This document shows positions 16,383 through 56,876 of a DNA stretch of 64,000 nt, one piece after another (position 1 is the first letter of the stretch; each line of letters starts with the position of its first letter). Source of the DNA: a virus; IMG/VR virus record IMGVR_UViG_3300027742_000009, positions 1 to 64,000 of that record. The stretch is one strand, 5' to 3'. A program made the position numbers and the translations under genes. Below the pieces are notes generated by a model, which worked only from the letters and a program-made list of their open reading frames with translations, was not told where the DNA came from and did no database searches.

Positions 16383-16561
16383 ATCATGTGACTGAGGGAA
16401 AATGTGACAGTTGCGGGGCAATTGTTGATACCTTAGTTCCAATCCGCATTTTATGTGAAACTAACGGTGCTATGGAAATGCAACTTAGACACTACTGCCC
16501 AGAATGTTTTATGGAGATGATGGATAATTGGGAACGTGATAAGAAAGATGAAGAAAAATAA
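16379..16561 (+). CDS. small zinc-finger protein
   Basis: CDSCGA...HYCPECF; 4-nt overlap with the upstream gene and 26-nt overlap with the Lon gene. Confidence 0.4.
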   Translation: MNHVTEGKCDSCGAIVDTLVPIRILCETNGAMEMQLRHYCPECFMEMMDNWERDKKDEEK

Positions 16562-30094: not shown

Positions 30095-30364
30095 ATGCGG
30101 ATTGTTGCTCCGAGAGGAACAGAGATTGAATTTATTGGACATAAGGTTAAAAATGTGAGTGGTGGGTGGTATATAAATGGTGGAACGTTTTGTTGCCGTT
30201 GTAACGTAGCATTTGATTTTGAAGAGAGTAAAAAGATTTATTTAAGGGATATGCAGATGGGACGTGAACATGGGATTCCCCGTTGTCCCCATTGTGGTCA
30301 ATCTCTTAGGACACGTAGTAAGCCTAATCCTAGAAGTGGTTTTTGGGAGAGGATAGAGGAATGA
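30095..30364 (+). CDS. zinc-ribbon protein
   Basis: CCRC ... CPHCGQ. Confidence 0.4.
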   Translation: MRIVAPRGTEIEFIGHKVKNVSGGWYINGGTFCCRCNVAFDFEESKKIYLRDMQMGREHGIPRCPHCGQSLRTRSKPNPRSGFWERIEE

Positions 30365-31485
30365 AGACAATAGGCATCTTCGCTGATTCTCCTTCCATGC
30401 CAACGGGTATGGCTATTGTGTGTAAGAATTTAGCGTTGGGTTTGTCTAATTATCCAGTTAGAGTAGTTTATTTCGGTAGGTTTGGACAACAAAGAGGAGT
30501 AGGTAAAGAACCAATATTACATGAACAAGCAGTAAACTATGATTTAGTTCCAACTGAAGGTGGAGTTTGGAGACCAAGAACTGTGATAACTGCAATAGAA
30601 CAATATGATATAGATATTATTTTTACTGAAGACGATTTTTTTAGTGCTGGCGGATTGGTTAGGGCTTCAAAGAAAACTGGTAAGCCACTTCACTTTCTTA
30701 CTCCTATAGATAGTTTACCTATTAATCCTATGGCTTACCGAATATTCAAGGAATGCAAGAAAGTTTATGTTCCAAACAGCAGTTACAAACTAATCAAGAA
30801 TGGAGTTTATCTTCCGCATGGATGTGACCGAGAAGTATTTTATCCGCAGAAGCTTTATCGTGACCCAGACTTATTCACGTTTGTTTGGATTGGACGTGAC
30901 GAACCACGTAAGGCTATGGGAAGATTTATATTTGCAGTTGAAAAAGCAATTAAAAAAGTTGATTTTCAAGTTATTATTCATAGTGACTGGAGAGCTAACT
31001 TGGCTAAACGGACAGCACGTTATTTACGTTATAAACGTGATTTACCAGTAATAATGACTCAGATGGAAGCTGGCGGTCAAGAACAACTTAACCGAATATA
31101 TAATACTTCTGACGTGTTAGTTTGTACTTCGAAGGCGGGTGGTTTTGAAATGAGTCAGACAGAGGCTATGGCATGTGGCAAACCAGTTATTACTACGGAT
31201 TGGACTTTCATGAATGAGGTTGTAGAGAACTATGAGAACGGATTTAAAATTCCAATTACAAGTGAATGTGGTGATACTGCTATATTATATAATGGTAAAC
31301 GTTGGGGTGTTTCGTTAGGACGTAAATGGGGGGAGATTGGAATTAATGCTTTGGCTGATGCAATGAGGTATTGTGTGGATAATCCAGATGTGGTTAATCG
31401 GATGAGTGAAACTACTTTCAAATATGTTGAGAGGTATGATTGGCGTAAAATAGCTGGGAAATTATATCGGGAGATTATGGAATGA
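30343..31485 (+). CDS. glycosyltransferase, GT-B fold (GT4-like)
   Basis: CTSKAGGFEMSQTEAMACGKPVITTD (E-x7-E region). Confidence 0.75.
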   Translation: MGEDRGMKTIGIFADSPSMPTGMAIVCKNLALGLSNYPVRVVYFGRFGQQRGVGKEPILHEQAVNYDLVPTEGGVWRPRTVITAIEQYDIDIIFTEDDFFSAGGLVRASKKTGKPLHFLTPIDSLPINPMAYRIFKECKKVYVPNSSYKLIKNGVYLPHGCDREVFYPQKLYRDPDLFTFVWIGRDEPRKAMGRFIFAVEKAIKKVDFQVIIHSDWRANLAKRTARYLRYKRDLPVIMTQMEAGGQEQLNRIYNTSDVLVCTSKAGGFEMSQTEAMACGKPVITTDWTFMNEVVENYENGFKIPITSECGDTAILYNGKRWGVSLGRKWGEIGINALADAMRYCVDNPDVVNRMSETTFKYVERYDWRKIAGKLYREIME

Positions 31486-32573: not shown

Positions 32574-32820
32574 AATGCTTGCTGTGATAGGTTCAGTTCT
32601 TCTTTCGTTAACTATGTTGTTTCAGTTTCGCAGAACATATATTGAACGTAAAACATTAAAGGATTTAAGTTTTGCTTCTTTCCTTACTTGTTTTCTAGCA
32701 TCAATCTTTCTTTGCATTAGATTTGTTGAAATTGGAGAATGGGCAATGTTTGGAATGGAGTTTCTTTGTGGAGCAATTGACATTATAACGTTATATTGGA
32801 TAATACAAAGTAGTGATTGA
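32566..32820 (+). CDS. three-TM PQ-loop / SemiSWEET-like membrane protein
   Basis: 84 aa, 3 TM helices. TM1 ends in LFQFRRTYIERKTLKDLS, compared with the bacterial SemiSWEET pattern LPQ..+....K.T+DIS. Confidence 0.45.
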   Translation: MFEMLAVIGSVLLSLTMLFQFRRTYIERKTLKDLSFASFLTCFLASIFLCIRFVEIGEWAMFGMEFLCGAIDIITLYWIIQSSD

Positions 32821-33197: not shown

Positions 33198-33519
33198 TTT
33201 AAACATTAGGAAGTTGATTATTCCCAAATTTACTTATTCTAAGTATTGTAGTAAATGTAAGTTTTGTGTTAAAGCAGAATGGAGCCGAAACGAAGGAGTT
33301 AAGTATGGAATGTTAAATGTGTATTGTTGCGTGAACGGTGGAAGTTTTCCTAAACCAATTTGTCCACATGGAATAGCATGGTGGACACCTTTGGGAACTG
33401 AACAAACATTTAATCCAGAAGATTGGGGACCAGAAAGATTTAATAAGAAGGAAACATTTACATATACACTAGAAGAACCTAAAGGTGAAAGAGAACCAAG
33501 TAAACAGAGGAAACTTTAA
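33190..33519 (+). CDS. Cys-rich hypothetical protein
   Basis: 109 aa; CSKCKFC...YCCVNGG...ICPHG. Confidence 0.4.
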   Translation: MSDLNIRKLIIPKFTYSKYCSKCKFCVKAEWSRNEGVKYGMLNVYCCVNGGSFPKPICPHGIAWWTPLGTEQTFNPEDWGPERFNKKETFTYTLEEPKGEREPSKQRKL

Positions 33520-34814
33520 TGATAAATAATCTTCCTATAAATAAAATAATTCAAGGAGATTCTATTAAAGTTTTATCTAGTTTTCCAGCAGAGTCAATAG
33601 ATTTAGTAATGTTTAGTCCACCTTACTGGGGATTACGTGATTATGGGGTTGAAGGACAAATCGGGTTAGAATCGCATCCCCAATTGTATATTGACCATAT
33701 GGTTGAAGTTTGTAGAGCAATTAAAAGAGTGTTAAAAAGTTCTGGTAGTATGTATATTGTTGTTGGAGACACTTATAATTCTGCTCCGCCTTCTGGAAAA
33801 CAAGGCGGTTGGAGAAGACCTTCAAGAGAAAACAAAAATATACCTATAAAACAAAAACGTATTTATGAGGGAAATTGGTTGCAACCTAAACAGAAACTTA
33901 TGATTCCATCACGACTATGGATTGCCCTACAAGAGGACGGTTGGATATTACGAAACAAGATTATATGGTTTAAACATAATCCTATGCCAGAAAGTTGTAA
34001 AGACCGTTATACTCAATGTTATGAAGAAATAGGATTTTTTGTTAAGCCACCAGCAAAAAACTATTATTTTAATATGAAAGCAGTTTTGCAATCTTTGAAA
34101 GGAACGACTATTGAGAGGTGTAAACGTGGTTTTTCTGAAGAGGGAAAAGGTGGATATAGAATGAGACATAATAAAGAGTATGCTAAGAAAATAAAAACAT
34201 CTCTCAGTCCGAAATATACTGGGACAAATGGACATTCTAATCGTGCTGGTTTAAACCGTGAATTATCATATCATGAAAAAAGAAGATTTGAAGTATTAAA
34301 TATTCCAATTGCTTTATATCTTAGAAAATACATAAAGAAACATCATAAACAAGAATTAAATAAAACTTTTGGAGAGCATCGTTGGACACATTGGGTAAGA
34401 ACTGATACTTCTGGTTCTTGTTTGCCATCCCCAGATGATTGGCTTAAACTGAAAGAGATATTGGGATTTGATGAGAAGTTCGATAAGACAATGACTGAAA
34501 CAGTAATCGTTGATAATCAAATAGTAATTGTTGGTCGTCACCCTAGAGATGTTTGGCAAATTAATACTAAATCTTATCATGGTGCTCACTTTGCTGTTTA
34601 CCCAGAAGAACTGTGTATAGACCCAATTAAGTCAATCCCACAAGACGGAGTTGTTCTTGACCCTATGTGTGGAAGCGGAACAACTTGTGTAGTAGCTCAT
34701 AAACTTGGTAGAAGATGGATTGGTATAGAACTAAATTCAGAATATGTAGAGATAGCTAGGAAAAGACTTAATAAGGCTGGAGCGTATAGTAAAAAGTTAG
34801 GAGATTTTATATGA
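33519..34814 (+). CDS. DNA methyltransferase, beta-class (SPPY motif IV, possibly N4-cytosine)
   Basis: DLVMFSPPYW near the N-terminus; VLDPMCGSGTTCVVA (motif I) near the C-terminus; long insert between them. Confidence 0.8.
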   Translation: MINNLPINKIIQGDSIKVLSSFPAESIDLVMFSPPYWGLRDYGVEGQIGLESHPQLYIDHMVEVCRAIKRVLKSSGSMYIVVGDTYNSAPPSGKQGGWRRPSRENKNIPIKQKRIYEGNWLQPKQKLMIPSRLWIALQEDGWILRNKIIWFKHNPMPESCKDRYTQCYEEIGFFVKPPAKNYYFNMKAVLQSLKGTTIERCKRGFSEEGKGGYRMRHNKEYAKKIKTSLSPKYTGTNGHSNRAGLNRELSYHEKRRFEVLNIPIALYLRKYIKKHHKQELNKTFGEHRWTHWVRTDTSGSCLPSPDDWLKLKEILGFDEKFDKTMTETVIVDNQIVIVGRHPRDVWQINTKSYHGAHFAVYPEELCIDPIKSIPQDGVVLDPMCGSGTTCVVAHKLGRRWIGIELNSEYVEIARKRLNKAGAYSKKLGDFI

Positions 34815-34832: not shown

Positions 34833-35123
34833 ATGCCTAACAGACAAGCCCACGAAAATGTAAGCGTGATGATTCTAGGGCATAAATACACTCGTGTCCA
34901 TCAATGGTTAGATGGTACTTTTACTAGGCGAAAATGGAGAACGCATAGGCTAGACAGACATCATTTACAAGCGATAAAAAAGAAGTATAAGGAAGGTTCT
35001 GGACAATATAAAGCGGCACTTCTCCACGTATTGATTGACCTTCAACATTCTTTCGGCTTATTATATATTCCTAAAGATAGAGAAGACATAAAAAGAATAT
35101 ATTTAGAACATGGAGCCTTGTAA
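34833..35123 (+). CDS. hypothetical His-rich protein
   Basis: 96-aa ORF. No family recognised. Confidence 0.4.
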   Translation: MPNRQAHENVSVMILGHKYTRVHQWLDGTFTRRKWRTHRLDRHHLQAIKKKYKEGSGQYKAALLHVLIDLQHSFGLLYIPKDREDIKRIYLEHGAL

Positions 35124-36270
35124 AATGAATAAAGTATTATGGTGGGCACCCACACCTTGGGAACATGACGGTGGAGCTGTAGTAGATTATTATCTTTGGC
35201 AAGAGATGAACTTTCAAAAACCAGAACTTGAAATGCATGTTATACCAAAAGTATGGGGACAAGCAACACCAGAACAAATGCCCTATTTGAAGTGGCATTC
35301 AGTAGGAACCAAATACTTTGGGGAAATTCCTAAAAAAATACCACAAATAATGAAAAAACACAAGATAGACACTCTTATTATGTTTCATATTCCTTGGGAG
35401 TATTTCCCAATAATAGATGAAGTTCATAAAATGGGGGGACAAGTTATAAACCATCAAACTATACATTGGCGTAATGATGTGTTGTTTATGAGTGATAAAC
35501 TTCATGATTTTGACTGGTGGGTTCCGCCTACTCAATATGCTAAGAATGTTCTGGCTGAAGTTGGCGGAGTAGATAAAAGTAAAATGTTGGTGATTCCACA
35601 TGGAGTTGATATGTATAGATTTTTCGCTCATGGCACACAGTTCCGTGATAGTCTAAGACTTAAACCTAACCAGAAGGTAATATTATTTGTTGGAAGAGCA
35701 CAATTGACTAAGGGAATTGTTCCTATGATGTTAGCCACAAGAAAATTGTGTAATGATTTTAACTGTCACGTAGTGTTTAAAGCGGGGGTTCATGGTGGAG
35801 TTACTAAAGCAAGGGAAATGGCTTATTTGCTTAATAAAATGACCACATGGGACAAACGAATACACTTCCTACCAAACTGGTATTCAACAGATTTTGCAGA
35901 AGATTTAATAGCAAGTTGTGACATTCTAGCTTGTCCAAGTGGACATGAAGGATTCAGTCTTCCACCGTTGGAAGCAATGGCTTGCGGTAAACCAGTAGCA
36001 GTAACGGATATTCCAGTTCATAGGGAACTGATTGGTGGACAAGGCAAGTGTGGATTGTTAATGCCACCTTCAGACCATACTGAATATGTTAATGATGTTC
36101 AAAGTGTTACTGTTCCAAACAAGGATATGATTTATGGAACGTTAAAGTGGCTGTTGGAGAATCCAGATGAGGCGGAAGTTATGGGACAGAATGGATTAGC
36201 AAGAGTTAAGAAATATTACGATTTGGAAAAGATAAGCGGAGATTGGATTAAATTATTGGAGAAATTATAA
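35110..36270 (+). CDS. glycosyltransferase, GT-B fold (GT4-like)
   Basis: CPSGHEGFSLPPLEAMACGKPVAVTD. Confidence 0.75.
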   Translation: MEPCKMNKVLWWAPTPWEHDGGAVVDYYLWQEMNFQKPELEMHVIPKVWGQATPEQMPYLKWHSVGTKYFGEIPKKIPQIMKKHKIDTLIMFHIPWEYFPIIDEVHKMGGQVINHQTIHWRNDVLFMSDKLHDFDWWVPPTQYAKNVLAEVGGVDKSKMLVIPHGVDMYRFFAHGTQFRDSLRLKPNQKVILFVGRAQLTKGIVPMMLATRKLCNDFNCHVVFKAGVHGGVTKAREMAYLLNKMTTWDKRIHFLPNWYSTDFAEDLIASCDILACPSGHEGFSLPPLEAMACGKPVAVTDIPVHRELIGGQGKCGLLMPPSDHTEYVNDVQSVTVPNKDMIYGTLKWLLENPDEAEVMGQNGLARVKKYYDLEKISGDWIKLLEKL

Positions 36271-37152
36271 ATGAGGATTTTGTATTTTTATAGAGGAAGA
36301 GAAAATTATCATCCAGCTTGGGATTCACTAAGGAAAAGCCTAAGTGAAATAGCAAATGTAACTCAGTTGGAAGCGGGACTAGAATATGATGGAGAAAAAC
36401 TGGTTAGACAAATTAATCCAGAAATTCTTGTTATTGGGGCTTCCTCGATAAGAACATGTAAACTTATAAGAAATCTGGATAAAGTGAAAATACCAAAAGT
36501 TATATATACAATTCATGAGTTTATATTTTTGGATGACTATATAAAATTTATAAATGATAAACAAATTGATTTAGTTATGACGACAGATTTGAAAGAATCA
36601 TATCTAGGCAAAGTTCACTCATGTTTAGTTAAAAATTGCTTTCCTTCAGTAGATGAAAACCATTTTAAAGATTATGGTTTAAAACGAAAGTGGGATGTTT
36701 ATTATTCTGGACTAAACAAGTTCCGTTTTAGTGATTATCCATTAAGAGTTAAGATTGTAAGAAGTTTACTTCAAAAACCAAACATTAAAAGTTTTGTTAC
36801 GTTTGATTTTACTTCTCCGCTTGAATACGCTAAAGAATTAAGTCAAGCTAAAATAACCGCTTTCGGAAATAGTATTTATCATGCATTAACTATGCGGATG
36901 ACTCAAGCATGGGCAAGTAAAACATTGGTTATGTGTGATATGCCTAAAGTTGGATTAGAAGCGGGCATGAAACCAAACTATAATTTTGTAGAGATTAATG
37001 AAGAAAACTTTCTTGAGAAAATTGAATATTACTTAAAGAATGAGAAAGAAAGAAAACGGATAATTGAGAATGGATATGTTGAAGTTATAAATCATCATAC
37101 TTCTGATATTAGGGCTAAGGAACTTCTAAAATTATTTGAGGAGATTATATAA
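36271..37152 (+). CDS. CgeB-like glycosyltransferase (Glyco_trans_1_2/DUF3880-like), paralogue A
   Basis: AKITAFGNSIYHALTMRMTQAWASKTLVMCD and the C-terminus YYLKNEKERKRIIENGY..HHTSDIRAKELL. Collinear with 41742-42671. Confidence 0.5.
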   Translation: MRILYFYRGRENYHPAWDSLRKSLSEIANVTQLEAGLEYDGEKLVRQINPEILVIGASSIRTCKLIRNLDKVKIPKVIYTIHEFIFLDDYIKFINDKQIDLVMTTDLKESYLGKVHSCLVKNCFPSVDENHFKDYGLKRKWDVYYSGLNKFRFSDYPLRVKIVRSLLQKPNIKSFVTFDFTSPLEYAKELSQAKITAFGNSIYHALTMRMTQAWASKTLVMCDMPKVGLEAGMKPNYNFVEINEENFLEKIEYYLKNEKERKRIIENGYVEVINHHTSDIRAKELLKLFEEII

Positions 37153-37770
37153 ATGAAAATGGATTATATAGATAAGATTGGGATAGAGAAAGAATTCTGG
37201 CTTGTAGATAAGGATGGAGTTATCCAAGAGCCAGCCATCTTTAATTTTCCATATGACGAGTATGGATTTCTAGTAGAACTCAGAACAAAAGCTTGTATGA
37301 ATACAAAGGTTCTTTTAACAGATTTCAATCAGCGTGTTCATTTGTTAAAAGTGAAAGCAAAAATACTCGCCTTTAAATTATCTGATGCTCCACAGATGTC
37401 TATACCAGAATTTTTCCTTGAGTATTTATCTCCTAAGTATAAGTATGGGTCTCTTCAAGATTTAACTGCTAACATTCATACTGGCGTAAAATGTTCTCAT
37501 GCTACTGGAGTATTTGAAGATTATTTGACGGCTGGGATGCATGTTCACTTTAGCAGACATGACCAGTTTGGTAGGAGAGTTCAACTTCCGATAGAAATTA
37601 TTGTTCGTAAAATGGATTGGGATTTTAGAAGTGTAATTATGGAAGCCAATCGGATACTTGGTGAATACGAAATTAAGTCTCATGGTTTCGAATATAGAAG
37701 TTTACCAGCAAATGCTCCAATAGAAAAAGTAGTTAAGAGAGCATTTAAAATATTGGAGAGTTGCAAATGA
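37153..37770 (+). CDS. amidoligase / carboxylate-amine ligase-like (GS/GCS2 fold)
   Basis: GIEKEFWLVD, GFLVELRT, GMHVHFS and GFEYRSLP follow the GxExEf ... ElR ... HVH ... E.R order of GCS2/Amidoligase_2 proteins. Confidence 0.5.
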   Translation: MKMDYIDKIGIEKEFWLVDKDGVIQEPAIFNFPYDEYGFLVELRTKACMNTKVLLTDFNQRVHLLKVKAKILAFKLSDAPQMSIPEFFLEYLSPKYKYGSLQDLTANIHTGVKCSHATGVFEDYLTAGMHVHFSRHDQFGRRVQLPIEIIVRKMDWDFRSVIMEANRILGEYEIKSHGFEYRSLPANAPIEKVVKRAFKILESCK

Positions 37771-38579
37771 CCAGAATTGGGTGGGTAGCTGACCATTTCT
37801 ATCCTCATGTTAAACGTGGGGCTGAATTACATACTAGAATATTAATTGAGGAAGGCAAACGTAGAGGATATGATATTGTAGAATGTGAAGGAAAGATAGT
37901 TAAGGATGTTGACTTGTATATTGTTGGAACTTGCGTTGACAACTTTAACGCTGGAGAATTACTTGCTTACTTATCAAGGAAACCTTATGTTAATATGGAA
38001 CATGACTTGCGTGCTCCACATATGGCTTGGTATAAAATGTTTGCTAGTCAAGCTTTAATTAATGTTTTTAGAAGTCCATTGCACGTTCAAATAATAAACA
38101 GAATTTCTGGAAATTACAAGCATTTCTTACATCCAAATTGTATTCCAGAACAATTTAAAGACTTAGGATTAAAACGTAAACCTAAAAATCAAGTGTTATA
38201 TGCTGGAGATTATAGTTGGGAGAAAGGATATAGAGGATTGCTTGATTGGATAGAGAGCCATCCTAAAGCTACTCTCTGGCATTATGGGGCTGGCTTTCCA
38301 AAGAAACACTCAAGGATGAAAGAAATGGGACAGACTAGCTATGAAGAAATGCCGAAAATCTATAATCAGTTTCAGTCAATGATTTTCTTGCCTAATTACC
38401 CGCAAGCTTGCTGTAGAATTATGTGTGAAGCCTTCTTATGTAAAGTCCAAAACATTATAACCAATGACAAGTCTGGCTTTATGAGCTACAACTTCAAAAT
38501 GAAGGATTATGAGAAGGTTAGAGAATTACTTGTTAATGGACATAAAAAATGGTGGAATAAAGTAAAGGAATTTATATGA
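37761..38579 (+). CDS. GT-B-like glycosyltransferase (degenerate)
   Basis: C-terminal half PNYPQACCRIMCEAFLCKVQNIITND resembles a divergent E-x7-E region. Likely start ATG 37767 (ATGA overlap). Confidence 0.35.
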   Translation: MQMTRIGWVADHFYPHVKRGAELHTRILIEEGKRRGYDIVECEGKIVKDVDLYIVGTCVDNFNAGELLAYLSRKPYVNMEHDLRAPHMAWYKMFASQALINVFRSPLHVQIINRISGNYKHFLHPNCIPEQFKDLGLKRKPKNQVLYAGDYSWEKGYRGLLDWIESHPKATLWHYGAGFPKKHSRMKEMGQTSYEEMPKIYNQFQSMIFLPNYPQACCRIMCEAFLCKVQNIITNDKSGFMSYNFKMKDYEKVRELLVNGHKKWWNKVKEFI

Positions 38580-39463
38580 GTAAGTTAAGCGTTCTTATTG
38601 CAATTGACTACTGGGGATGGGCATTTGATTTTGTTAGTAGAGGAATCCAAAAATATAGTAAACATAATGTAACGGTTAAACGATGGAATGAAATAGACAT
38701 TTTCGACTTTAGAAAACACGATGTTTTTTTCAGCATGAATGATAGTTGTTGGTTTTGTATGAACAATAAAAATAAAGAAATAATTAATAGATTGAAAATT
38801 AGAAGATGTGTAGGTATTCGTGGATGGAAAGGAAAACATGCAAACCGTATTTTGAAGGGTTGGATAATTGGTTGTGTGAACCAGAAAATTTATGATGATT
38901 TAATGAAAGAAAAAAACTTACCAGTTAAAGGGGTTTATCTTACTCGTAATGGAGTTGACACAGAAATTTTCAAGTCGGTAGATAGACCAGAAAAAAGATT
39001 TGTTGTTGGTTGGGCTGGAAATTCACATCGTCCTGAAAAACGCTTTTCTCTTCTGCGAGATGTTGATTTTCCATTGTTAGTCCAAAACAAACACGACAAT
39101 AAATATCGTGTTAAAGGAAGAAGCAGAGATGAAATGATTGTTTTTTATAATAAGATAGATTGTTTTGTAAATGTTAGTAGTGGCGAGGGAATGCCCCAAA
39201 CTATATTAGAAGCCGCCGCTACTAGACTTCCAATTGTTGTAACTGATGTTGGTGGAATGTCAGAGTTTATAGATGAAAAATGGATTATTCCAGCCTTTCC
39301 AGTAAAAACTTGCATAAAAACATTAAATGAGAAACTTCAAATTTTAAAAGATAATCCGAAATTACGGTTTGAAGTTGGAAATAAGAATCTTCGGAAGGTT
39401 TTAAATAAGTGGGATTGGAAGTATATAGTAGAGGATTATGACCGAATGTTTGAGGGAGCATGA
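38576..39463 (+). CDS. glycosyltransferase, GT-B fold (GT4-like)
   Basis: VNVSSGEGMPQTILEAAATRLPIVVTD. Confidence 0.65.
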   Translation: MSKLSVLIAIDYWGWAFDFVSRGIQKYSKHNVTVKRWNEIDIFDFRKHDVFFSMNDSCWFCMNNKNKEIINRLKIRRCVGIRGWKGKHANRILKGWIIGCVNQKIYDDLMKEKNLPVKGVYLTRNGVDTEIFKSVDRPEKRFVVGWAGNSHRPEKRFSLLRDVDFPLLVQNKHDNKYRVKGRSRDEMIVFYNKIDCFVNVSSGEGMPQTILEAAATRLPIVVTDVGGMSEFIDEKWIIPAFPVKTCIKTLNEKLQILKDNPKLRFEVGNKNLRKVLNKWDWKYIVEDYDRMFEGA

Positions 39464-40710
39464 TGTATCCATATCAAAAGAAAGTTTATAATTTAAGTTT
39501 TCTGATTGAAAGTCAATATTGGAGTCCAGAACGACTTCGTGAATTACAATTAGAAGGATTTAAGGCTATAGTTAGTCATGCTAGAAAACATTGTCTTTAC
39601 TATCGGGATTTACCGATAATAAAAGACATTGACGATATTAAAAACATTCCAATACTAACTAAAGCAAATATAAGAAAACATTTTAACGATTTGCATATTA
39701 GTAATGTTCCTTCTAAAGTTATGGAAACTGGCGGAACAATAAGCAGAGTAAAAATTGCACAAGACAATCTTTTATTTAAGCGAATTGGAAAACAAAGGTT
39801 TGAGTCGTGGTATAGAACATCTATTAGGAGAATTGCTCATCTCTGGGGAAGTATTGAGGGGAAACAATTTAATTATGATGGAAATAAATTATGGATGCCA
39901 GTTGAACTTTTAACAAATCAAGATATGGCAAAAAAATACTTGGATAAATTAGTTGAAATGAAACCAGATATGCTTCACGGCTATGCTCTTCCATTAGTTA
40001 CTTTAGCTCACTATGCCAACAAACTAAACATTCATCCATATTGCAAAGTTATAAAAAGCGAATGTGAAACTTTAACCTCTATTATGAGAAAGGAAATCGA
40101 AGAAGCATTCCCAACTAAGTATGGCTTGTTTAATTTTTATGGAAGTAGAGATTTAGCTAGTATGGCTCAAGACTGTAGGAGACATAATGGATTACATTTG
40201 TTTGATGAACGATTTATTACAGAAGTAGTTGATGGAAGATTTTTATTTACGGATTTAATGAATTATGCTTTTCCTCTTATTCGATATGAAAATCAAGACA
40301 TAGGAGAATTTACTATTAAACCATGTAAATGTGGACGGGGATTAAAAACTATTTATCCAGTAATTGGAAGAGTCCTTCACTATATTAAAACGAAAGGTAA
40401 TTCTTGGGTTACAGCCTTCATATTTTATCTTCCAATAAACTACTATGATATTCATCACGGAACAAATATTTTCGGATGGATTGAATCATTCCAAATTAGA
40501 CAAAGAGAAGCTGGAAAAATAACTTTATTGTTTAAGCCTTGGGATGGAGAGAAGCCACCAAAAAATCTTGATAAAACCAAACAAATTTTAGACCAGCATA
40601 TTAAAAAAGAAAACTTTGATTATAACATTGAAATAGTAGATAAAATTCCCTTGAGTAAAAGCGGAAAACAAATAAGTGTTGATACGACTTTAATGAGAGA
40701 GTGGAAATAA
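39460..40710 (+). CDS. adenylate-forming enzyme, PaaK/CapK/F390-synthetase-like
   Basis: Size, METGGTISR (P-loop-like SSGTTG position) and C-terminal lysine context IPLSKSGKQ. This architecture recurs in capsule gene clusters. Confidence 0.45.
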   Translation: MMYPYQKKVYNLSFLIESQYWSPERLRELQLEGFKAIVSHARKHCLYYRDLPIIKDIDDIKNIPILTKANIRKHFNDLHISNVPSKVMETGGTISRVKIAQDNLLFKRIGKQRFESWYRTSIRRIAHLWGSIEGKQFNYDGNKLWMPVELLTNQDMAKKYLDKLVEMKPDMLHGYALPLVTLAHYANKLNIHPYCKVIKSECETLTSIMRKEIEEAFPTKYGLFNFYGSRDLASMAQDCRRHNGLHLFDERFITEVVDGRFLFTDLMNYAFPLIRYENQDIGEFTIKPCKCGRGLKTIYPVIGRVLHYIKTKGNSWVTAFIFYLPINYYDIHHGTNIFGWIESFQIRQREAGKITLLFKPWDGEKPPKNLDKTKQILDQHIKKENFDYNIEIVDKIPLSKSGKQISVDTTLMREWK

Positions 40711-41163
40711 ATGTTTGAGGTTTTAGATGTTGGTTGTGGAACCCATCCAAAAGGAGATGTCAATGTTGATTTGTATGTAACAGTAAAAGAACGTAAGACT
40801 CAAACATTTGTTGATGTAAAGTTTATTGAAACAAAAAATTTGGTTAAGGCAGATGCTCATCACTTACCTTTTAAAAATGAAACCTTCGATAAGATAATTT
40901 GTAGTCACACAATTGAACATTTATTACAGCCATATATAGCTTTAAAAGAAATGTATAGAGTTTTAAAACCAAATCACCTTTTATTTTTAGATTTGCCTAA
41001 TTCATTTTTACTTTTAAAGACTGGCAAGGTTGAACATCTAACACATTTCTATTCTTGGACTCCAAGTTCTCTATCACACTTACTTGAACAAATAGGATTT
41101 AAAATATATCGCACAACTGAAGTTGTGCATCGAATAAACATGCAAGTGGTAGCTAAGAAATGA
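40711..41163 (+). CDS. class I SAM-dependent methyltransferase
   Basis: VLDVGCGTHPKGD (motif I) and HHLPFKNETFDKIICSHTIEHL. Confidence 0.75.
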   Translation: MFEVLDVGCGTHPKGDVNVDLYVTVKERKTQTFVDVKFIETKNLVKADAHHLPFKNETFDKIICSHTIEHLLQPYIALKEMYRVLKPNHLLFLDLPNSFLLLKTGKVEHLTHFYSWTPSSLSHLLEQIGFKIYRTTEVVHRINMQVVAKK

Positions 41164-41738
41164 TGGAAATAGTAGGATTAGAAGTTCATGTTGAACGCTG
41201 TTCTCAACCAGAAGTTTATGGTCAAATTAAAAGATGGGTATTGACTCATCATTCAGTAAGATTATTGTTTGTAGGTACTGGTAAATATCGTCCTTCTTGT
41301 AAACAATTAAATGCATTAGCAAAAATATCTCCAATAGGACTACATACACATTTAGCATTCTTTTCTATCAAAGACCAAATTGAACATTTTCGAAAGATAA
41401 AAGAGTCTTTCGCAAAGAAAGCCGAGATTTTAACAGATATAATGGATTCAAAAACCTATGAATATCAATATGCTAAAATTAAAACTGGATTGGATTATTT
41501 TAATGATTGTGGATTAAAAAATATAACACATTTTACTGCTGGTAACTTCTGCTTTAACAAGGATACTATAAAAGCTTGTCATTTGCTAGGATTAACCAAC
41601 TTTCATTGGACTATTTATCCAAATTGGAGCAATAAAACTAAAGACAGAATAAAAAATCTTGTAACATGGGGAAAAAACACATATAAAGACATGGAATTTA
41701 TTTATGTGAAAGCATGGGTACACGATAGGAGTCTGTAA
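41160..41738 (+). CDS. hypothetical protein (possible polysaccharide deacetylase-like)
   Basis: GLHTHLAF and FTAGNFCFNKDTIKACHLLG; weak resemblance only. Confidence 0.3.
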   Translation: MMEIVGLEVHVERCSQPEVYGQIKRWVLTHHSVRLLFVGTGKYRPSCKQLNALAKISPIGLHTHLAFFSIKDQIEHFRKIKESFAKKAEILTDIMDSKTYEYQYAKIKTGLDYFNDCGLKNITHFTAGNFCFNKDTIKACHLLGLTNFHWTIYPNWSNKTKDRIKNLVTWGKNTYKDMEFIYVKAWVHDRSL

Positions 41739-41741
41739 GAA

Positions 41742-42671
41742 ATGAAAATTGTTTGGCTTGGACATAACATGAAAAGGAGAATTCCATTCTCGCCTTATTC
41801 TTATTGTATGCAAGTAGAAATGAGCAAGTTGGCTAACGTGGTTTTTTATGGGGGGGGTGGCGGTAAGTTTATTCCAGAGTTTGACGTGGAAAAAATAGTG
41901 GGTAAGGAACAGCCAGACGTTCTTGTATTTTTTAATAACCAAAAATCATTCGTCAATATAAGCAAAGTGAAAACTCCCAAGTATTGCAAATGTAGTGACC
42001 CACATGAACCAAACTTTTCAAGGCATATTGTCTTCATAAATAAATATAAGGCAGATTTAACTTCGATATGTTGTTGTGAAGGGATTATGGAGAAGTATAA
42101 AGCAAAGACAAAACAGAGAATAGTCTATCTGCCAGATGCTACATGTTCTGCTTTCTTCAAAGATTTGGGGTTAAAGCGAGATTTGGATGTTTACTTTGCT
42201 GGTTCTTCCAATCATAAAACTTACCCTCTGAGAGCCAGATTAATAACCAAGCTTTCTAAAGAGAAACAAATAAAGTTTCTTCTGCGACATAGTGAAGTTC
42301 AAAATGTTTCTGAAGTAGAATGGGAACACCAATTAACACGATATGTTATAGAACTTAATAGAGCAAAAATAACACCATTTGGAACAAGTATTTACAATTA
42401 TGCGTTAAGAAGATTTGGTGAGGGAATGGCGTGTAACTCTTTAGTGTTGGCTCCAGTTCCAAAAGATGCTAATTTCTTACATTTTATTCCCAATAAAAAC
42501 TTTATCCAAATTAACATGCTTAATTTCATGGAAAAAATTCACTATTATCTAAAACATGAAAATGAAAGAAAAACAATAGCTAAAAAGGGTTTAGAAACCA
42601 TCAAAAAATATCACACGGTTAAAATAAGAGCCAAACAATTATATGATTATTTGAGGGAGATAATTGAATAG
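41742..42671 (+). CDS. CgeB-like glycosyltransferase, paralogue B (contains a G8 tract)
   Basis: AKITPFGTSIYNYALRRFGEGMACNSLVLAP and HYYLKHENERKTIAKKGL..YHTVKIRAKQLY. T6 then G8 at 41842-41857 encodes FYGGGGG. Confidence 0.5.
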   Translation: MKIVWLGHNMKRRIPFSPYSYCMQVEMSKLANVVFYGGGGGKFIPEFDVEKIVGKEQPDVLVFFNNQKSFVNISKVKTPKYCKCSDPHEPNFSRHIVFINKYKADLTSICCCEGIMEKYKAKTKQRIVYLPDATCSAFFKDLGLKRDLDVYFAGSSNHKTYPLRARLITKLSKEKQIKFLLRHSEVQNVSEVEWEHQLTRYVIELNRAKITPFGTSIYNYALRRFGEGMACNSLVLAPVPKDANFLHFIPNKNFIQINMLNFMEKIHYYLKHENERKTIAKKGLETIKKYHTVKIRAKQLYDYLREIIE

Positions 42672-43296
42672 AAATGAATTTACACTAATCCATAACCAAA
42701 TAGTAAATAAACATAAAAATAAAAAATGGGATTGGAAATGGTTCCTAAATAAAGTTCTAAATCTGAAATGGAACAATAGATTTGGATGGTTTATAAGGAC
42801 AATTCCTAAATATTTAGAGGATGGAATGAAAGTTTTAGATATTGCTGGTGGATTTGGACATTTCGGAGTTTACCTTATGGTTATTGAAAATTACAAGATA
42901 GACTATGCCGTCTTTGATTTACCAGTTATGGAACCTATAACCAAAGATTATTTTAAAAGTTTTAAAGTAAAAGGTAAATTTATAAGTGGAGATATAACAG
43001 TACTACCAAATTTTTTCTCAGAACAATTTGATATGGTTTGGCTTTTTAGTTGGTGTCAAATTGGAAAAGTAAATTGTAAACAATTATTTTCAGAAATCTA
43101 TAAAATTTTAAAACCAAATGGGACATTTATGTTTAATATGGCTTACAAGAATTATCGAATTAAATTTTACCGTGAAGAAGAATTAATTAGACTTTTAAAC
43201 AAAATTGGATTTAAAGTTGAAATATTAGTTAAAGATGGTACATTTGCTCCAGATAACATGGTAGTGGCTTTAAAAAAAACCGAAAGCTTAAAATAA
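42664..43296 (+). CDS. class I SAM-dependent methyltransferase
   Basis: MKVLDIAGGFGHFGVYL (motif I); ILKPNGTFMF. Confidence 0.65.
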   Translation: MNRNEFTLIHNQIVNKHKNKKWDWKWFLNKVLNLKWNNRFGWFIRTIPKYLEDGMKVLDIAGGFGHFGVYLMVIENYKIDYAVFDLPVMEPITKDYFKSFKVKGKFISGDITVLPNFFSEQFDMVWLFSWCQIGKVNCKQLFSEIYKILKPNGTFMFNMAYKNYRIKFYREEELIRLLNKIGFKVEILVKDGTFAPDNMVVALKKTESLK

Positions 43297-43327
43297 GACT
43301 TGATATATAAATTATGGGGATGACAAA

Positions 43328-44128
43328 ATGTCCGAAAAAGAATCTTTTGAAGTTCATGAAGGATGGATAAAATCTAAAGTTAAAAAAGACAAGTGTCCAT
43401 TCTGTGACAATCCAAAGAAAAGTCATTGGTATTATGATGATGGAAATCTTGTAGTGGCTGACGATGCTGAAAAGCCCGATTGTCTAATTCTTTTTCCACT
43501 TGAACATTATCCTCAATGGGTTATTTTCGGAACAGAGAAAAGTCGTGAATATCTAAAATTATTGACTGGAATCGCAAGAGTTAAATGGGGAAGAAATGTA
43601 AAATATAAAATAGATTGGAAAACCAAAATATATGAACATGCACACATTCAATTAACTATGATAAAGCCTGAATGGATAAAAGGGAAAGGTATAATAGTTA
43701 CAGATGCTAAAGTTGGTAAGGGAACACAAGTTTGGCACTATGTCATTCTCTTTAAGTGTTCAATTGGGACAAATTGTATTATAGGTTCACATGCCGAGAT
43801 AGGTGGAAAAATTGGAAATGGCTGTAAAATTCAATACGGGGCTTTTATACCAAGAGGAGTAGTTTTAAGTGATGATGTTTTTATTGGACCAAATGTCACG
43901 TTTACAAACGACTATTTTCCAAGAGCATTAGGTAATTGGGAAATAGAACCAACCTATGTAGGGGAAGGGGCGAGTATTGGAGCAAATGCTACCATATGTT
44001 GTGGAATTACAATAGGTAAAAAGGCAATGGTTGGATGTGGAGCTGTTGTTATTAAAGACGTTCCAGACAATGCTAAGGTGGTTGGTAATCCAGCTAGGAT
44101 TATAGGATATGTAAAAGAAAATCCTTAA
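43328..44128 (+). CDS. hexapeptide-repeat (left-handed beta-helix) sugar acyltransferase with N-terminal extra domain
   Basis: Repeats [29 protein letters not shown]...[31 protein letters not shown]...[10 protein letters not shown]. Confidence 0.75.
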
Positions 44129-44165
44129 ATAATAGAAGAGAGATAAGTATATAAGAGGAATAACT

Positions 44166-45107
44166 ATGAGAATTCTTGTAACTGGTGGAGCTGGATTTAT
44201 TGGCAAGTCCCTATGTAGAAGACTGCTTAAAGAAGGACATGAAGTTTGTAGTCTTGATATAGTCGAAAGCACAATTAAACATAGAAACTTTACATCTTTA
44301 ATCGGTGACATTACAAACCCTAAATATATTGACCCAGATTATGGGGGATTAGAACTTTGGAGAGACGTGGATTTCTGTTTTCATCTGGCGGCTATGGCAA
44401 ACGTTGATGAAGTTAGAGAACACCGAGATAAAGCTTTCCGAGTAAACTTGTATGGAACATTCAATATTATTGAAGCTTGCAGAAAAATGAATATCCCATT
44501 AGCTTATATTAGTACAGCATGTGTATATGGGCATACTAAACAACACCCTTCAACTGAAGATGGACCAACATTACCAGTTGATTGGTATGGAGTAACCAAA
44601 CGTGCTGGAGAAGAACTTGTTAAAGGATTACTAAACCGATATGTAATATTACGTTTTGGAACTACATTAGGAGCTGAAATGAGACCCGCCTTATGTACCC
44701 ATATCTTTCTTAAAGTCGCAATAAACAAAGAAGCTTTTCCAATTAGGGGAACTGGAAAACAAACTCGTAATTGGATTTACATTGACGACCTTGTTGACGG
44801 TTGTGTTAAAGCGATGGAACATTGCACAAGTGGATGTCACCTTTGCGAGAAAGACACGTTTAATCTTGTGGGTCAACCTTCTTATTCAGTTAAAGACTTA
44901 GCTCATATATGCCAACAAATAGTAAATAAGAGAGTGGCTATAACAATTGATAAGTTACCAGCTAGACCAGATGATGTTATGAGGGAAGATATTAGTATTA
45001 AAAAAGCACAAGACTTATTAGGTTGGTCGCCTAAAGTTAAGTTACAAGAAGCGTTAGTAAGAATTTATAAGGAGTGGATGAAAGATGGAAGAAAAGGAAA
45101 ACGATAA
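44166..45107 (+). CDS. NAD-dependent nucleotide-sugar epimerase/dehydratase (SDR)
   Basis: ILVTGGAGFIGKSL Rossmann motif and YGVTKRAGE (YxxxK). Confidence 0.85.
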   Translation: MRILVTGGAGFIGKSLCRRLLKEGHEVCSLDIVESTIKHRNFTSLIGDITNPKYIDPDYGGLELWRDVDFCFHLAAMANVDEVREHRDKAFRVNLYGTFNIIEACRKMNIPLAYISTACVYGHTKQHPSTEDGPTLPVDWYGVTKRAGEELVKGLLNRYVILRFGTTLGAEMRPALCTHIFLKVAINKEAFPIRGTGKQTRNWIYIDDLVDGCVKAMEHCTSGCHLCEKDTFNLVGQPSYSVKDLAHICQQIVNKRVAITIDKLPARPDDVMREDISIKKAQDLLGWSPKVKLQEALVRIYKEWMKDGRKGKR

Positions 45108-46515: not shown

Positions 46516-49500
46516 ATGATTAAATTGAAGATTCCAGAAGTTTTTAAAGGAAAAAAGAAGAATAAAAAGGAAAAACCAAGTAGAACTGAAGAAGGACATA
46601 AAGTTATTGCAGAGAAAAAAGCAAAAAGGGAACAGCGTGAACAAGCTCAATTAAAACTTGAAGGTGACGCTAAAGAGTTTTTTGAAGTTAAAGCTGAAGA
46701 AACTGGAATGTCAGTTCCCGAAGTCATTAATAAAGTAATAGAAAACGATGTTATGCTTATAGAATTTAATGAAACAACTGGAAAAGCAAGTTTAGTCTTT
46801 AAGTCTTGGGCTTCCCCTTCAACAACACTTGGAGAAAACCAACCGTTATCACAAAAAATAATTAGTGAGTTTCGTAAACTAAGAGAAAACTTTGCTCCAG
46901 TATCGGCTGGAATAGAATGGCATAGAGACTTCACTTGTTATGATAAAGAAACAGAAGTTTTAACTGAAGATGGCTGGAAGTTATTCAAAGATTTAAATGA
47001 TGGTGACAAAGTTGCAACATTGAATTCTAATGGTGAATTAGAATATCAAAAACCTTTGAGACGAATGACCTATGATTATAATGGGAGATTGTGGAAATTC
47101 AAAAATCAACAAATAGATTTACTTGTAACGCCAAACCATAAAATCTTGAGAAGAACTGTTGGGAGAGACAGATTTAATAAATCGTTTGAATTGATGAAGG
47201 TTACTGATGTTATACAATATCAGAAAACAGAAATGAAAAAGAACGCAAAATGGAATGGAGAAGATATTGAATTTCATATCCCAATAACTATAAAGAGAAC
47301 ATCTGATGTAATAAAAGACAATATAGACTTGAATGATTGGCTTGAGTTCTTTGGCTATTGGCTATCAGAAGGCTCTGCTACTGCAAAATCAAATGATTAT
47401 GTTATTAAGATTTCACAAAGCAAAAAAGTCCATCCTAAGACTTATGAAAAAATACGAAAATGTATAGAAAGACTAGGATATAATTATTATGCAAACGAGA
47501 AGTATTTTACTATTTCCAATAAACAACTCTATCTTTATCTTAACCAATTTGGTAAATCATGGCAAAAATTCATTCCCAAAGAAATAAAACAATTACCACA
47601 AGAAAAGTTAGGTATTCTTTATAATGCTCTTATTGATGGAGATGGAGTTCGATATAAAGATACAAATGGATATAGTTCAACATCTAAACGTTTGATTGAT
47701 GATATGCAAGAAATTCTATTAAAACTTGGATTTGCTGGTAATATACATTCATGCCCAATGAGAGATTCTTATATAAAAGGACGAAAAGTCATAGCAAAAC
47801 ATCAACGTTATAGAATATTTGAGATTGATTATCGGGGGTTAACTCCAGTTATTTTGAGAAAGGATATTGAACCAATCCATTATAATGGAAAAATATATTC
47901 TTGTGAAGTACCTAACCATATATTATATGTAAGACGTAATGGTACTCCAATATGGTCTGGCAATAGTGGCGGTGGCTTTATTGTTCAAACAAACGACCCG
48001 AATGACAAGCATAAAATTATGACTCGTGACGAAGTTAAACAGTTTTGTAGAGATGTTTATCAAGACCAATATACAACTGGTTTAGATAATATTTTGGATA
48101 TTATGATGGATACTGCTTTAACTGATGGTTGTTCAGCCGCAGAAATAGTTTATGATGAAGAAGTAGAATTTATGGATTATGTTAGCGGATTTGAAAACGT
48201 GGTTATGAAAGATAAGGAAGGAAAAGATAAAGTAGTTAAAGTTATGACTCCTAAAGAACCAGATTGGCATGGAACTCTTAAACGAATAACACGTCTTAAA
48301 ATTATAGATGATGCATATAATAGGTTACGTCCATATCGTCACCCGAAGAGTGGTGAAGTATTATTTTGGAGTTTAGATGAGAAAGTTAAAAGTGAATGGA
48401 CAAATAAAAAAACGATAGCTAAAAACAGTATTAAGTTTCATCCTTGGGAGATTTTCTGGTTAAGCTGGAATCAACGTGGAACAAACCTTAAAGGAATGAG
48501 TCTTATTCAACCAGTTTATACCATAGCAAAGTTTGTTCAAGCAATACAAAAAGCTGTTGGAGTAGGCTTTAATCGTTGGGCAAACAAGAAATACTTTTTT
48601 GTGTTAGGAACTGAAAAGCGTCCTTGGAGTAAACCAGCTCAAACAGCATTTTTAAAAGCTATGGGACAAATGATAAAAAACAATTATATTGGTATTCCAG
48701 TTCCAGCAGGATTTGACATTAAAAATATTGGTGGAGAAGGAACAGTTTTTGAAGGACAAAACCTTCTTAACTATTTAACTGGACAAATCTGTACGGGCAT
48801 GCAATATCCTAGAGAATTTCTGGAAGTTGGTAAAGGAACTCAATCAGCAAGTAGTAGTTCATGGTTGGCATGGACTGTTCGTTACGGTAGAAATCAACGT
48901 CAAGTTAAAAGAGCTATTGAACAACAATTGTTTAAACGTCAATTATGGTGTTTACACGGTAAGAAATATCGTGTGTCAAAGAAGGGTGTTCCAAGAACTG
49001 AACAAGAACAAAGGGATGTATATATTCCTAAGTTGCAATGGCGTGCTGAAGGACGTTGGCACAGAGAAAGAAAAATGGAGTTGTTAACTAGCACTTTAAA
49101 CGTTGCTAATCCAGCAGACCCACCGTTAAAGCTTGGTGTAGAAAAGCTTATGTGTGACATTCTAGGACTTGGAGAACTTGATTGGGAAACTACTATTAAA
49201 CTTCACGAAATAAGAACTGAATCTCAACTGCTTGAGGCTAAACTTAACAAGTTAACTGCTGAAGCTAAATTGAAAGAAGCTGAAGAGTTAGGTGTTGAGG
49301 GACTTTTAAAGAGACTTAAAGAACGAGAAAAAGCTAAGTTGGCTCAACCAGTTGGAGAGAAACCAGTTAAAGTTCCAACTGAAGAAGAATTGACTCGTAG
49401 AGGAGAAGAACGATTGGCTGGTGGAGTAAGTCGTACTGATAGGGGTGCTCCAACACAGAAGGGTAAAGCTAGACCTATGGGTGGAACTAGAGAACCTAAA

Positions 49501-55358: not shown

Positions 55359-55368
55359 AATTATTCAC

Positions 55369-56693: not shown

Positions 56694-56876
56694 GTGGTTG
56701 ATTTGACTAAGAAAACTTGTCCCAAATGTAATGGAAAAGGATATGTCCTACGAACTTATCCTAATGATTTTCCCTGTTTCATGTCAATATTCACATATTT
56801 TCCATCGCCAATATTTCATTATGAAGTTTGCTCAAAGTGTAAAGGTAAGGGATATTTAGATGAAAAAGAAAAATAA
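56694..56876 (+). CDS. DnaJ-type CxxCxGxG zinc-finger protein
   Basis: CPKCNGKGYV and CSKCKGKGYL. Confidence 0.45.
   Translation: MVDLTKKTCPKCNGKGYVLRTYPNDFPCFMSIFTYFPSPIFHYEVCSKCKGKGYLDEKEK

Follow-up and report, generated by a model that had tools for sequence, protein, structure and literature searches.

Virus-encoded glycan factories are established in giant eukaryotic viruses and suspected in jumbo cyanophages. Giant viruses, as reviewed for chlorovirus capsids and for the fibril clusters of Megavirinae, glycosylate their virion proteins with cytoplasmic enzymes of their own (PMC9614988, PMC10117803, PMC5408694). Among bacterial viruses, the T4-like cyanomyovirus P-SSM2, a Prochlorococcus phage, carries 24 putative lipopolysaccharide (LPS) genes in two clusters (PMC1079782), and jumbo cyanophages have clusters that draw on at least eight glycosyltransferase families (PMC7824862). 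In the archaeal-virus literature we found single or paired glycosyltransferases only, and no description of a glycan cluster as large as the one reported here. For mycobacteriophages, capsid glycosylation has been inferred from two phage glycosyltransferases. Such a phage, a tailed virus assembled in the cytoplasm, reportedly uses its own glycosyltransferases on capsid or tail proteins. Here, we analyse the first 64,000 nucleotides (the window) of the IMG/VR virus record IMGVR_UViG_3300027742_000009, a 79,265-bp metagenomic contig of which about 15 kb lie outside the window, and propose that the run of genes at positions 35110-45107 (the island) is a virus-owned operon predicted to assemble and tailor a glycan with soluble enzymes only.

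The island consists of twelve open reading frames (ORFs), all on the plus strand and named below by the position of their first letter. An initial annotation, made from the sequence alone, had spoken of eleven genes in its title; the sequence and that annotation's own list both give twelve. It had also described an operon of tight junctions, and this holds: the gaps between successive genes are 0, 0, -4, -4, -1, 0, -4, +3, -8, +31 and +37 nt, with nine of the 11 junctions 4 nt or less apart or overlapping, and a GGAG/GAGG Shine-Dalgarno-like motif lies 5-10 nt before almost every start. The layout is that of a single polycistronic unit that may restart internally ahead of genes 43328 and 44166. 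Tight gene packing is widespread in this genome, and hence it is the content of the island, not the coupling itself, that is exceptional. Evidence by profile, fold or family is available for 11 of the 12 proteins, 41160 being the exception. As a separate observation, a TATATAA element precedes the start of the following gene in each of the two longer gaps, at 43297-43327 and 44129-44165, and the two elements may act as archaeal-type promoters inside the operon, one for each of its last two genes.

The island belongs to the virus. Chimerism and recent capture are effectively excluded, because the same island was recovered in three assemblies (ENA, Logan and JGI) and because its codon usage and its GC content at third codon positions (GC3) match those of the virus. 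Codon frequencies of the island correlate with those of the other viral genes at r = 0.937, against a baseline of 0.941 among viral genes, and GC3 is 0.240 in the island and 0.239 in the other viral genes. Two of the assemblies span the junction between the upstream DNA methylase and the island, and one continues to the portal gene. The check for a chimeric assembly that the initial annotation had proposed thus came out in favour of a genuine locus, and its placement of the island inside a tailed virus, between methylase and portal, is confirmed on both flanks: the terminase large subunit (TerL), the major capsid protein (MCP) and tail-like genes lie upstream, and the portal and replication genes downstream. 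A host locus flanking a provirus was considered and is ruled out by the viral genes on both sides, together with synteny in relatives.

Five of the island proteins are assigned as GT-B glycosyltransferases, one of them divergent. The first gene of the island (35110..36270, for which gene callers place the start at 35125) encodes a GT4-type enzyme that matches Glycos_transf_1 (5e-22) and Glyco_trans_1_4 (3.8e-18) and is 56-65% identical to collinear genes in three related contigs, L005, L010 and L014; its weak PDB matches include PglA, which acts on an undecaprenyl-diphosphate-linked sugar. Two more, at 36271..37152 and 41742..42671 (both called CgeB-like in the initial annotation), are of the Glyco_trans_1_2 type (PF13524; 5.8e-14, above the cut-off, and 1.1e-12, respectively). 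A short GT4-type enzyme at 38576..39463 (Glyco_trans_1_4 6e-12; Glycos_transf_1 3.7e-10) has collinear homologues in L005 (56%), in L014 (51%, as a fusion with a GT2 domain) and in L010 (43%). The divergent member, at 37761..38579 with a probable ATG start at 37767, has no direct Pfam match, and direct searches against profiles and PDB sequences gave nothing usable. It is recognised through its homologues: there are 365 relatives among 1.84 billion representatives, and in an alignment of 40 family members (39 homologues and the query itself) 33 match Glycos_transf_1, which bears out a degenerate GT-B call that had been made without any profile match. The label "degenerate" is fair, because the first acidic residue of the EX7E-like motif is Gln instead of Glu; the second Glu (E221) is nearly invariant.

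Further glycosyltransferases lie outside the island, all on the plus strand. The one at 26532..27800, two genes downstream of the MCP gene, matches Glycos_transf_1 (1.2e-9) and has homologues in the same position in the IMG/VR contig L001 (73% identity) and in L014 (66%). Another, at 30343..31485, downstream of the recombinase gene RadA, matches Glyco_trans_1_4 (5e-17) and is 69% identical to its L001 counterpart and 54% to that of L014. The latter (L014 3129-5090) is a 653-residue protein with an Intein_splicing domain; an intein within a viral glycosyltransferase suggests that the gene matters to the virus. Together with 35110, 36271, 38576 and 41742, both of these proteins exceed Pfam gathering scores. 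The gene at 56860..57624 is a more tentative case: its profile matches are weak (Anp1 1.2e-4, below the cut-off; a rhamnosyltransferase 3.8e-4; the viral protein STIV A197 0.39), and it carries the motifs FFLDSDS (DXD), GVGAGALLIKREVF and GEDLWF. Three weak but concordant matches combined with DXD and ED motifs make it a probable GT-A-fold enzyme. Of the at least eight glycosyltransferases first claimed for this genome, seven stand by profile or family and the eighth, 56860, is provisional. Divergent from 56860, the minus strand at 52707-56415 encodes an 883-residue protein with ten N-X-S/T sequons and a DUF2341 protein, both candidate fibre or adhesin proteins and candidate glycan acceptors.

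Two ligases set the island apart. Gene 37153 (37153..37770) encodes a 205-residue protein for which we found no Pfam or NCBIfam match at E <= 0.01 and none in PDB sequences, which places it outside Amidoligase_2, GCS2 and Gln-synt_C, and for whose family no Pfam model exists; a profile of the family likewise found nothing significant among PDB sequences. Its AlphaFold (AF2) model, at a mean predicted local distance difference test (pLDDT) score of 96.9, gave Foldseek matches in the PDB of which the best 50 listed are all glutamine synthetase or gamma-glutamylcysteine synthetase (probability 0.77-1.0, TM-score by query (TMq) 0.30-0.56, E 1e-3 to 2e-2, covering the catalytic core only). The glutamine synthetase (GS)-fold amidoligase call of the initial annotation, made without a profile match, is borne out by this model. 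On the predicted structure the protein has a GS-type fold, as a mini carboxylate-amine ligase, and it is best treated as a new family with a GS-like fold. In our protein collection the family comprises 74 homologue clusters of about 200 residues, none of the 74 with a Pfam domain, and has 26 invariant residues, including E42, R44, H130, H132, E171, E173, E180 and R182; E12 and E14 are near-invariant, and the conserved Glu, His and Arg residues fit a pattern of metal and ATP binding, judged by sequence alone. At least 221 relatives occur in JGI metagenomes, many of them on contigs 80-190 kb long with the appearance of large mobile elements or viruses. Recurrent neighbours are GT4 enzymes, epimerases of the short-chain dehydrogenase/reductase (SDR) class, hexapeptide acetyltransferases, homologues of the divergent glycosyltransferase 37761 and a protein resembling sulfotransferases in sequence. 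Among family loci of at least 8 kb, tblastn detected homologues of the glycosyltransferases, epimerase or hexapeptide protein in only 12 of 30; the association with glycan genes, as seen in these neighbourhoods, is real and not exclusive.

The second ligase, at 39460..40710, is assigned to the PaaK/CapK family of adenylate-forming ligases. It matches the NCBIfam DVU_1553-family AMP ligase model (3.4e-23) and several PaaK-family models (down to 2e-7), with scores that lie far below the equivalog cut-offs (82 bits where 300 are needed and 30 where 646 are, for instance) and do not identify it as a phenylacetate-CoA ligase. A profile of its family matches PaaK in the PDB (4r1l, 1e-27; 2y4o, 3e-12), and its homologues carry PF27533 CapK_C. 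The threonine-attaching enzyme AglU of M. maripaludis may belong to the same F390-synthetase/PaaK family. One homologue of the CapK-like protein, at 41% identity, lies in L007, a polysaccharide cluster of cellular type. In IMG/VR, neither the protein nor its family alignment nor the portal retrieved any relative; only the MCP did, with one contig.

The remaining island genes encode tailoring enzymes and one orphan. Two are class I S-adenosylmethionine (SAM) methyltransferases: a short one at 40711..41163 (Methyltransf_23 8e-15; Methyltransf_11 2e-14; motif I VLDVGCGTHP) and a second at 42664..43296 (Methyltransf_31 1.4e-7, Methyltransf_25 3e-7 and Methyltransf_11 3.8e-6, all above their cut-offs). 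The protein encoded at 43328..44128 is a left-handed beta-helix N-acetyltransferase of the WlbB/QdtC/WxcM class (Hexapep 3.5e-17; TIGR03570 NeuD/PglB/VioB 4e-23), a class that acts on nucleotide-linked 3-amino sugars. Over residues 115-265 it matches WxcM-like 4mzu (2.8e-33), WlbB 3mqg (2.5e-32) and QdtC 3fs8 (4e-16), and it also matches 7s43 (7e-31). Its N-terminal extension of about 120 residues (43328-43690) lies outside all PDB matches and is absent from the homologues of about 150 residues in L014 and in the 112-kb contig L012. The last gene, 44166..45107, encodes an extended-SDR nucleotide-sugar epimerase/dehydratase (Epimerase 2.7e-39; GDP_Man_Dehyd 7e-37) whose best solved relatives are 8rdg (2e-34), 6zl6 (7e-32), which we take to be a UDP-glucuronic acid 4-epimerase, and UDP-glucuronate decarboxylases (about 4e-28). 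The glycan-biosynthesis and tailoring functions first assigned to the island are nearly all right by profile, family or fold. The orphan, 41160..41738, sits mid-operon with a 4-nt overlap with its upstream neighbour; it is alone in its cluster among 5.8 billion sequences, finds no counterpart in the related loci and shows faint deacetylase-like matches (DUF2334 0.0036; the polysaccharide deacetylase 4m1b 0.007), and its AF2 single-sequence model (pLDDT 40) is unusable. In total, the glycan genes of the virus occupy about 13 kb and comprise seven or eight glycosyltransferases and six tailoring enzymes; this amounts to some 21% of the window, or some 17% of the 79-kb contig.

None of the 12 island proteins has a 19-residue hydrophobic segment, and no plus-strand ORF in the relatives' loci encodes a protein with four or more hydrophobic segments. 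Pfam families for a priming phosphoglycosyltransferase, flippase, exporter, polymerase or oligosaccharyltransferase (STT3/AglB) were found neither in the scanned window nor in the relatives' islands, and no nucleotidyltransferase was found in the window. The initial annotation had considered the gene set enough to build a complex polysaccharide; this is right for the assembly and tailoring enzymes and goes too far with regard to primer, flippase, polymerase, oligosaccharyltransferase and nucleotidyltransferase. By gene content, then, the island is not a self-sufficient surface-polysaccharide pathway of the Wzx/Wzy, ABC or Agl type. Since it lacks a nucleotidyltransferase and membrane steps, the pathway would draw on host nucleotide sugars and would then use either soluble acceptors or the lipid-carrier machinery of the host.

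The locus recurs in related viral contigs, as the initial annotation had asked to be checked. Genes 35110, 37761 and 38576 form a core that keeps its order in L005, L010 and L014 (43-65% identity). L010 and L014 also retain the GS-like ligase, and L005 and L014 the CapK-like one; synteny extends to flanking viral genes in L005 and L014 and partially in L010. In L005 the homologues of 35110, 37761, 38576 and the CapK-like ligase are 56%, 54%, 56% and 51% identical, and are joined by PF13524 glycosyltransferases, methyltransferases, a hexapeptide transferase, GNATs and an epimerase. In L010 those of 35110, the GS-like ligase, 37761 and 38576 are 65%, 74%, 61% and 43% identical, and the additional genes encode other glycosyltransferases, a cytidylyltransferase, a phosphodiesterase-family protein and a GNAT. 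The order in L014 is glycosyltransferase 26532, RadA, glycosyltransferase 30343, u134, u109, 35110, a hexapeptide protein, the GS-like ligase, 37761, the GT2 fusion of 38576, the CapK-like ligase, an epimerase, DegT, a PF13524 glycosyltransferase, a hexapeptide protein, a WbmS-like protein, another hexapeptide protein, an SDR protein and PIG-L. Accessory genes vary among the three contigs (DegT, PIG-L, GNAT, CTP-transferase, WbmS-like, GT2 fusions). In L001, the genes for the protease LonB, a transglutaminase, TerL, MCP, glycosyltransferase 26532, RadA and glycosyltransferase 30343 follow in the same order at 52-86% identity. Relatives also have genes for dCMP deaminase, NUDIX, ThyX and PAPS-reductase interleaved with glycosyltransferases, which points tentatively to a role of this genome arm in modifying nucleotides or DNA. 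The comparison marks the locus as a trait of the lineage in which the periphery changes around a stable centre, and a conserved core with swapped accessories is the pattern expected for a surface structure under diversifying selection.

In light of these enzymes, what might the virus be making? From the enzyme families, the operon structure, the viral context, the conservation and the absence of membrane components, we infer the substrates, the order of steps and the acceptor as follows. Host UDP-sugars would serve as raw material, and the extended SDR 44166 and the N-acetyltransferase 43328 would convert nucleotide sugars into uronic or 3-acetamido sugars. The five island GT-B transferases would add sugars stepwise, with possible contributions from the two conserved glycosyltransferases near the capsid gene and from the GT-A candidate 56860. 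As ATP-dependent ligases, 37153 and 39460 could introduce amide or acyl bonds, with the carboxyls of uronates or the amines of sugars as possible sites, and the two SAM methyltransferases would methylate the product. The outcome would be an acidic, N-acetylated, amidated and methylated oligosaccharide of the archaeal N-glycan kind; archaeal N-glycans are known to contain GlcNAc3NAcA, threonine-amidated mannuronic acid, C6-amidated diaminoglucuronic acid and O-methyl sugars (PMC11407970). Such a glycan could form a lineage-variable surface coat serving stability, adhesion or evasion.

The acceptors, in our reading, are most likely virion proteins (capsid, decoration, tail or fibre) that are glycosylated directly in the cytoplasm, a proposal to which we give slightly less than an even chance. 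Tailed virions are assembled in the cytoplasm, out of reach of AglB. We favour virion proteins because, given cytoplasmic assembly and no encoded membrane step, only a self-encoded soluble system could glycosylate them; because two conserved glycosyltransferases lie beside the capsid gene; because the GT-A candidate gene 56860 adjoins putative fibre genes; and because the variability of the locus suggests an exposed structure. A number of points weigh against this proposal. The MCP has neither an N-X-S/T sequon nor a Ser/Thr-rich tail, and no acceptor was identified. The GT4 enzymes are equally able to use lipid-linked acceptors, and the enzyme set resembles the Agl-type pathways of hosts, which favours an action on the host surface. 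The stretch from MCP to portal also contains RadA, the DNA methylase and a deoxyribosyltransferase-like gene, and therefore position among "structural" genes is weak evidence. The pathway relies on host enzymes not yet seen; no aminotransferase was found in the window, and the acetyltransferase class needs an amino sugar. Finally, the substrate assignments are based on 25-35% identity to solved enzymes, and 37761 may be catalytically impaired. The fuller picture, that an undescribed lineage of tailed archaeal viruses has a hypervariable, O-antigen-like locus at a fixed position whose soluble enzymes build an amidated acidic oligosaccharide on virion proteins, with the GS-fold ligase doing the amidating, we regard as possible and somewhat doubtful.

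The viral enzymes might instead extend or re-tailor a dolichol-phosphate-linked glycan of the host at the cytoplasmic face, after which the host flippase and AglB would place the altered glycan on S-layer, archaellin or pilin proteins, with the benefit of a superinfection block against competing viruses or of altered cell behaviour in a long or chronic infection. We consider this, the main rival reading, rather unlikely. Borrowing the host primer, flippase and oligosaccharyltransferase predicts their absence from the virus and explains the missing membrane steps equally well, and the repertoire mirrors archaeal N-glycan chemistry (PMC11407970). Remodelling of the host surface is, moreover, the standard hypothesis for cyanophage LPS clusters (PMC1079782; PMC7824862), the selectivity of archaeal viruses depends on surface N-glycans, the turnover of accessory genes among relatives fits a receptor arms race, and the CapK-like protein has a homologue in the cell-type polysaccharide cluster L007. 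However, no integrase or lysogeny gene was found among the scanned ORFs, and a lytic tailed virus gains less from exclusion; eight glycosyltransferases would be a large investment just to modify an existing glycan, and two of them are conserved right next to the capsid gene.

Other products fit the gene set less well. It is improbable that the island yields a soluble product, be it a glycolipid or a small molecule bearing sugars (a signal, a compatible solute or a secondary metabolite), instead of a protein-linked glycan. Five to eight glycosyltransferases indicate an oligosaccharide, neither a carrier protein nor an exporter nor a polyketide or peptide synthetase was found, and glycan genes are among those that recur next to members of the GS-like family, even though adenylating and GS-fold ligases do occur with methyltransferases in natural-product pathways and a second cluster of jumbo cyanophages is predicted to make a metabolite derived from sugars and amino acids (PMC7824862). 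The position of the island after a DNA methylase and a nucleoside-deoxyribosyltransferase-like gene, and the interleaving of glycosyltransferases in relatives with dCMP deaminase, NUDIX, ThyX and extra DNA methylases, would suit DNA hypermodification, in which transferases put sugars on modified viral bases in the style of T-even phages and thereby evade restriction. Known phages that glycosylate their DNA have one to three dedicated transferases, not eight of the GT4, PF13524 and GT-A types. Enzymes such as a 3-amino-sugar N-acetyltransferase, an SDR and transferases of the PF13524 type are characteristic of glycan synthesis, and the window yielded no hydroxymethylase and no enzyme that modifies bases; DNA hypermodification is accordingly very improbable. 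Barely credible is a non-viral origin, whether as host DNA misassembled onto a virus or as a host glycan locus beside a provirus: a glycan cluster of this composition is typical of cells and the CapK-like gene has cellular homologues, but viral hallmark genes stand on both sides, the three assemblies agree, codon usage and GC3 equal those of the virus, and relatives share the synteny. Virion proteins remain the acceptor that we prefer.

As to the virus itself, the sequence profiles identify it as a tailed double-stranded DNA virus of the HK97 type, Caudoviricetes-like, with MCP, TerL and portal all recognised. TerL (20697..22370, minus strand) matches phrog_2 (7.7e-15) and is 69% identical to its L001 counterpart. 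The MCP (24150..25157, plus strand) is assigned to the HK97 type by sequence profile, matching the PHROG major head protein families phrog_267 (3.7e-7), phrog_1357 and phrog_544 (3.7e-7 to 1e-4) and, below the cut-off, Pfam Phage_capsid_4 (1.2e-4); it is 75% identical to the product of a gene in IMG/VR UViG_3300009034_000042. The portal gene that flanks the island downstream (46516..50049, plus strand) contains a 343-residue LAGLIDADG intein at 46936-47964 (Cys141 to Asn483, with Ser at +1; LAGLIDADG_3 2.4e-9), and the spliced sequence matches the portal family phrog_9232 (3.2e-12). PHROG matches of the unspliced sequence to thymidylate synthase, ribonucleotide reductase and PhoH were rejected as intein artefacts. 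Upstream, the island is flanked by an N6/N4 DNA methyltransferase (33519..34814, plus strand; N6_N4_Mtase 2.8e-42), itself preceded by a nucleoside 2-deoxyribosyltransferase-like ORF (32109-32573; PF05014 3.6e-6, just under the cut-off).

Among the tail-like genes, 6530-8557 matches the minor tail protein family phrog_538 (2e-5) and has an F5/8 type C domain and a weak Sipho_Gp37 match; no tail tube or sheath was identified in the window. Just upstream of these genes, 3473-4501 encodes 342 residues with about six hydrophobic segments, making it the sole window protein with at least four; it has no Pfam or PHROG match and may be a short tape-measure protein rather than a transporter. The window also encodes a full-length LonB protease of archaeal type (16536-18683; AAA+ domain, LonB LID 2.7e-13, Lon_C and hydrophobic segments) and a transglutaminase-like protein with an N-terminal hydrophobic segment (19351-19938), both kept in L001 at 52-54% identity, as well as a RadA/Rad51 recombinase (5.4e-48), an ATP-dependent DNA ligase and, on the minus strand, a trypsin-like peptidase (11198-12091; Trypsin_2 3e-11). 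A Trypsin_2 protein at L012 8555-9427 adjoins glycan genes. No tRNA genes were found. The ORF at 32566-32820, described initially as SemiSWEET-like, does encode three hydrophobic segments in its 84 residues, but has FQ(x)RR where SemiSWEETs have PQ, no Pfam or NCBIfam match (and no PQ-loop/MtN3 profile) and no homologue in the related loci.

An archaeal host is hinted at by LonB and RadA, by a CapK homologue (44% identity) in a Hodarchaeota metagenome-assembled genome and by the single match of a GTDB genome scan with the CapK alignment, a 51% homologue on a 2.7-kb contig labelled "uncultured archaeon". Searches by tblastn with MCP, TerL and the GT4 enzyme found no meaningful relatives among 50,697 GenBank phage records, TerL having no detectable similarity and the GT4 enzyme a weak one, and these three proteins neither assign the virus to a named family nor place it close to the ANME-1 Nakonvirales.

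If virion proteins are indeed the acceptors, cytoplasmically assembled archaeal virions would be glycosylated without AglB, and the virus would offer a compact set of enzymes for making unusual uronic-acid sugars with amide and acetyl groups. Were the system autonomous, it would be the first of its kind in an archaeal virus, with a new mini GS-fold family amidating the glycan. Rewriting of the host glycan would, for its part, represent a new route to superinfection exclusion in archaea. Under either reading, the mini GS-fold ligases are an uncharacterised enzyme class of interest.

How, then, does this locus compare with described systems? The initial annotation had supposed that tailed viruses encode far fewer glycan enzymes, which is wrong for bacteriophages in view of the 24 genes of P-SSM2 (PMC1079782) and of the jumbo cyanophages (PMC7824862). 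Like the present locus, the cyanophage clusters vary between related viruses and have an unproven target (PMC1079782; PMC7824862); they differ in belonging to bacterial viruses of the 250-kb class with a proposed change of outer-membrane LPS, whereas here a 79-kb genome with archaeal-type genes devotes about 17% of its length to glycan genes and adds a mini GS-fold and a CapK-type ligase. With giant viruses the locus shares soluble glycosyltransferases and nucleotide-sugar tailoring; in giant viruses such enzymes reportedly build bacterial-like sugars independently of host membrane machinery, and the clusters are clade-specific. Those viruses infect eukaryotes and are of another realm, in contrast to the predicted HK97-type tailed capsid here. 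The predicted chemistry matches that of the Agl pathways of Methanococcus maripaludis and M. voltae, with their di-N-acetylated glucuronic acid, C6-amidated uronic acids (threonine or NH2) and O-methylated sugars (PMC11407970), but these need a dolichol-phosphate primer transferase, a flippase and AglB, none of which was found here. The archaeal-virus glycosyltransferases STIV A197, the STSV1 enzyme, those of the Asgard virus Fenrir and the magrovirus GT4 are thought to act on virion proteins or the host surface, as may be the case here; their viruses have one or two such enzymes and no tailoring pathway, compared with seven or eight plus six tailoring enzymes in this virus. Mycobacteriophages, with a bacterial host, have two to four transferases without sugar-tailoring or amide-forming enzymes. 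Thus, large glycan clusters in tailed viruses are not new; what is new here is a compact archaeal-virus version with archaeal-type chemistry, a variable locus found across the lineage and an undescribed family of mini GS-fold ligases.

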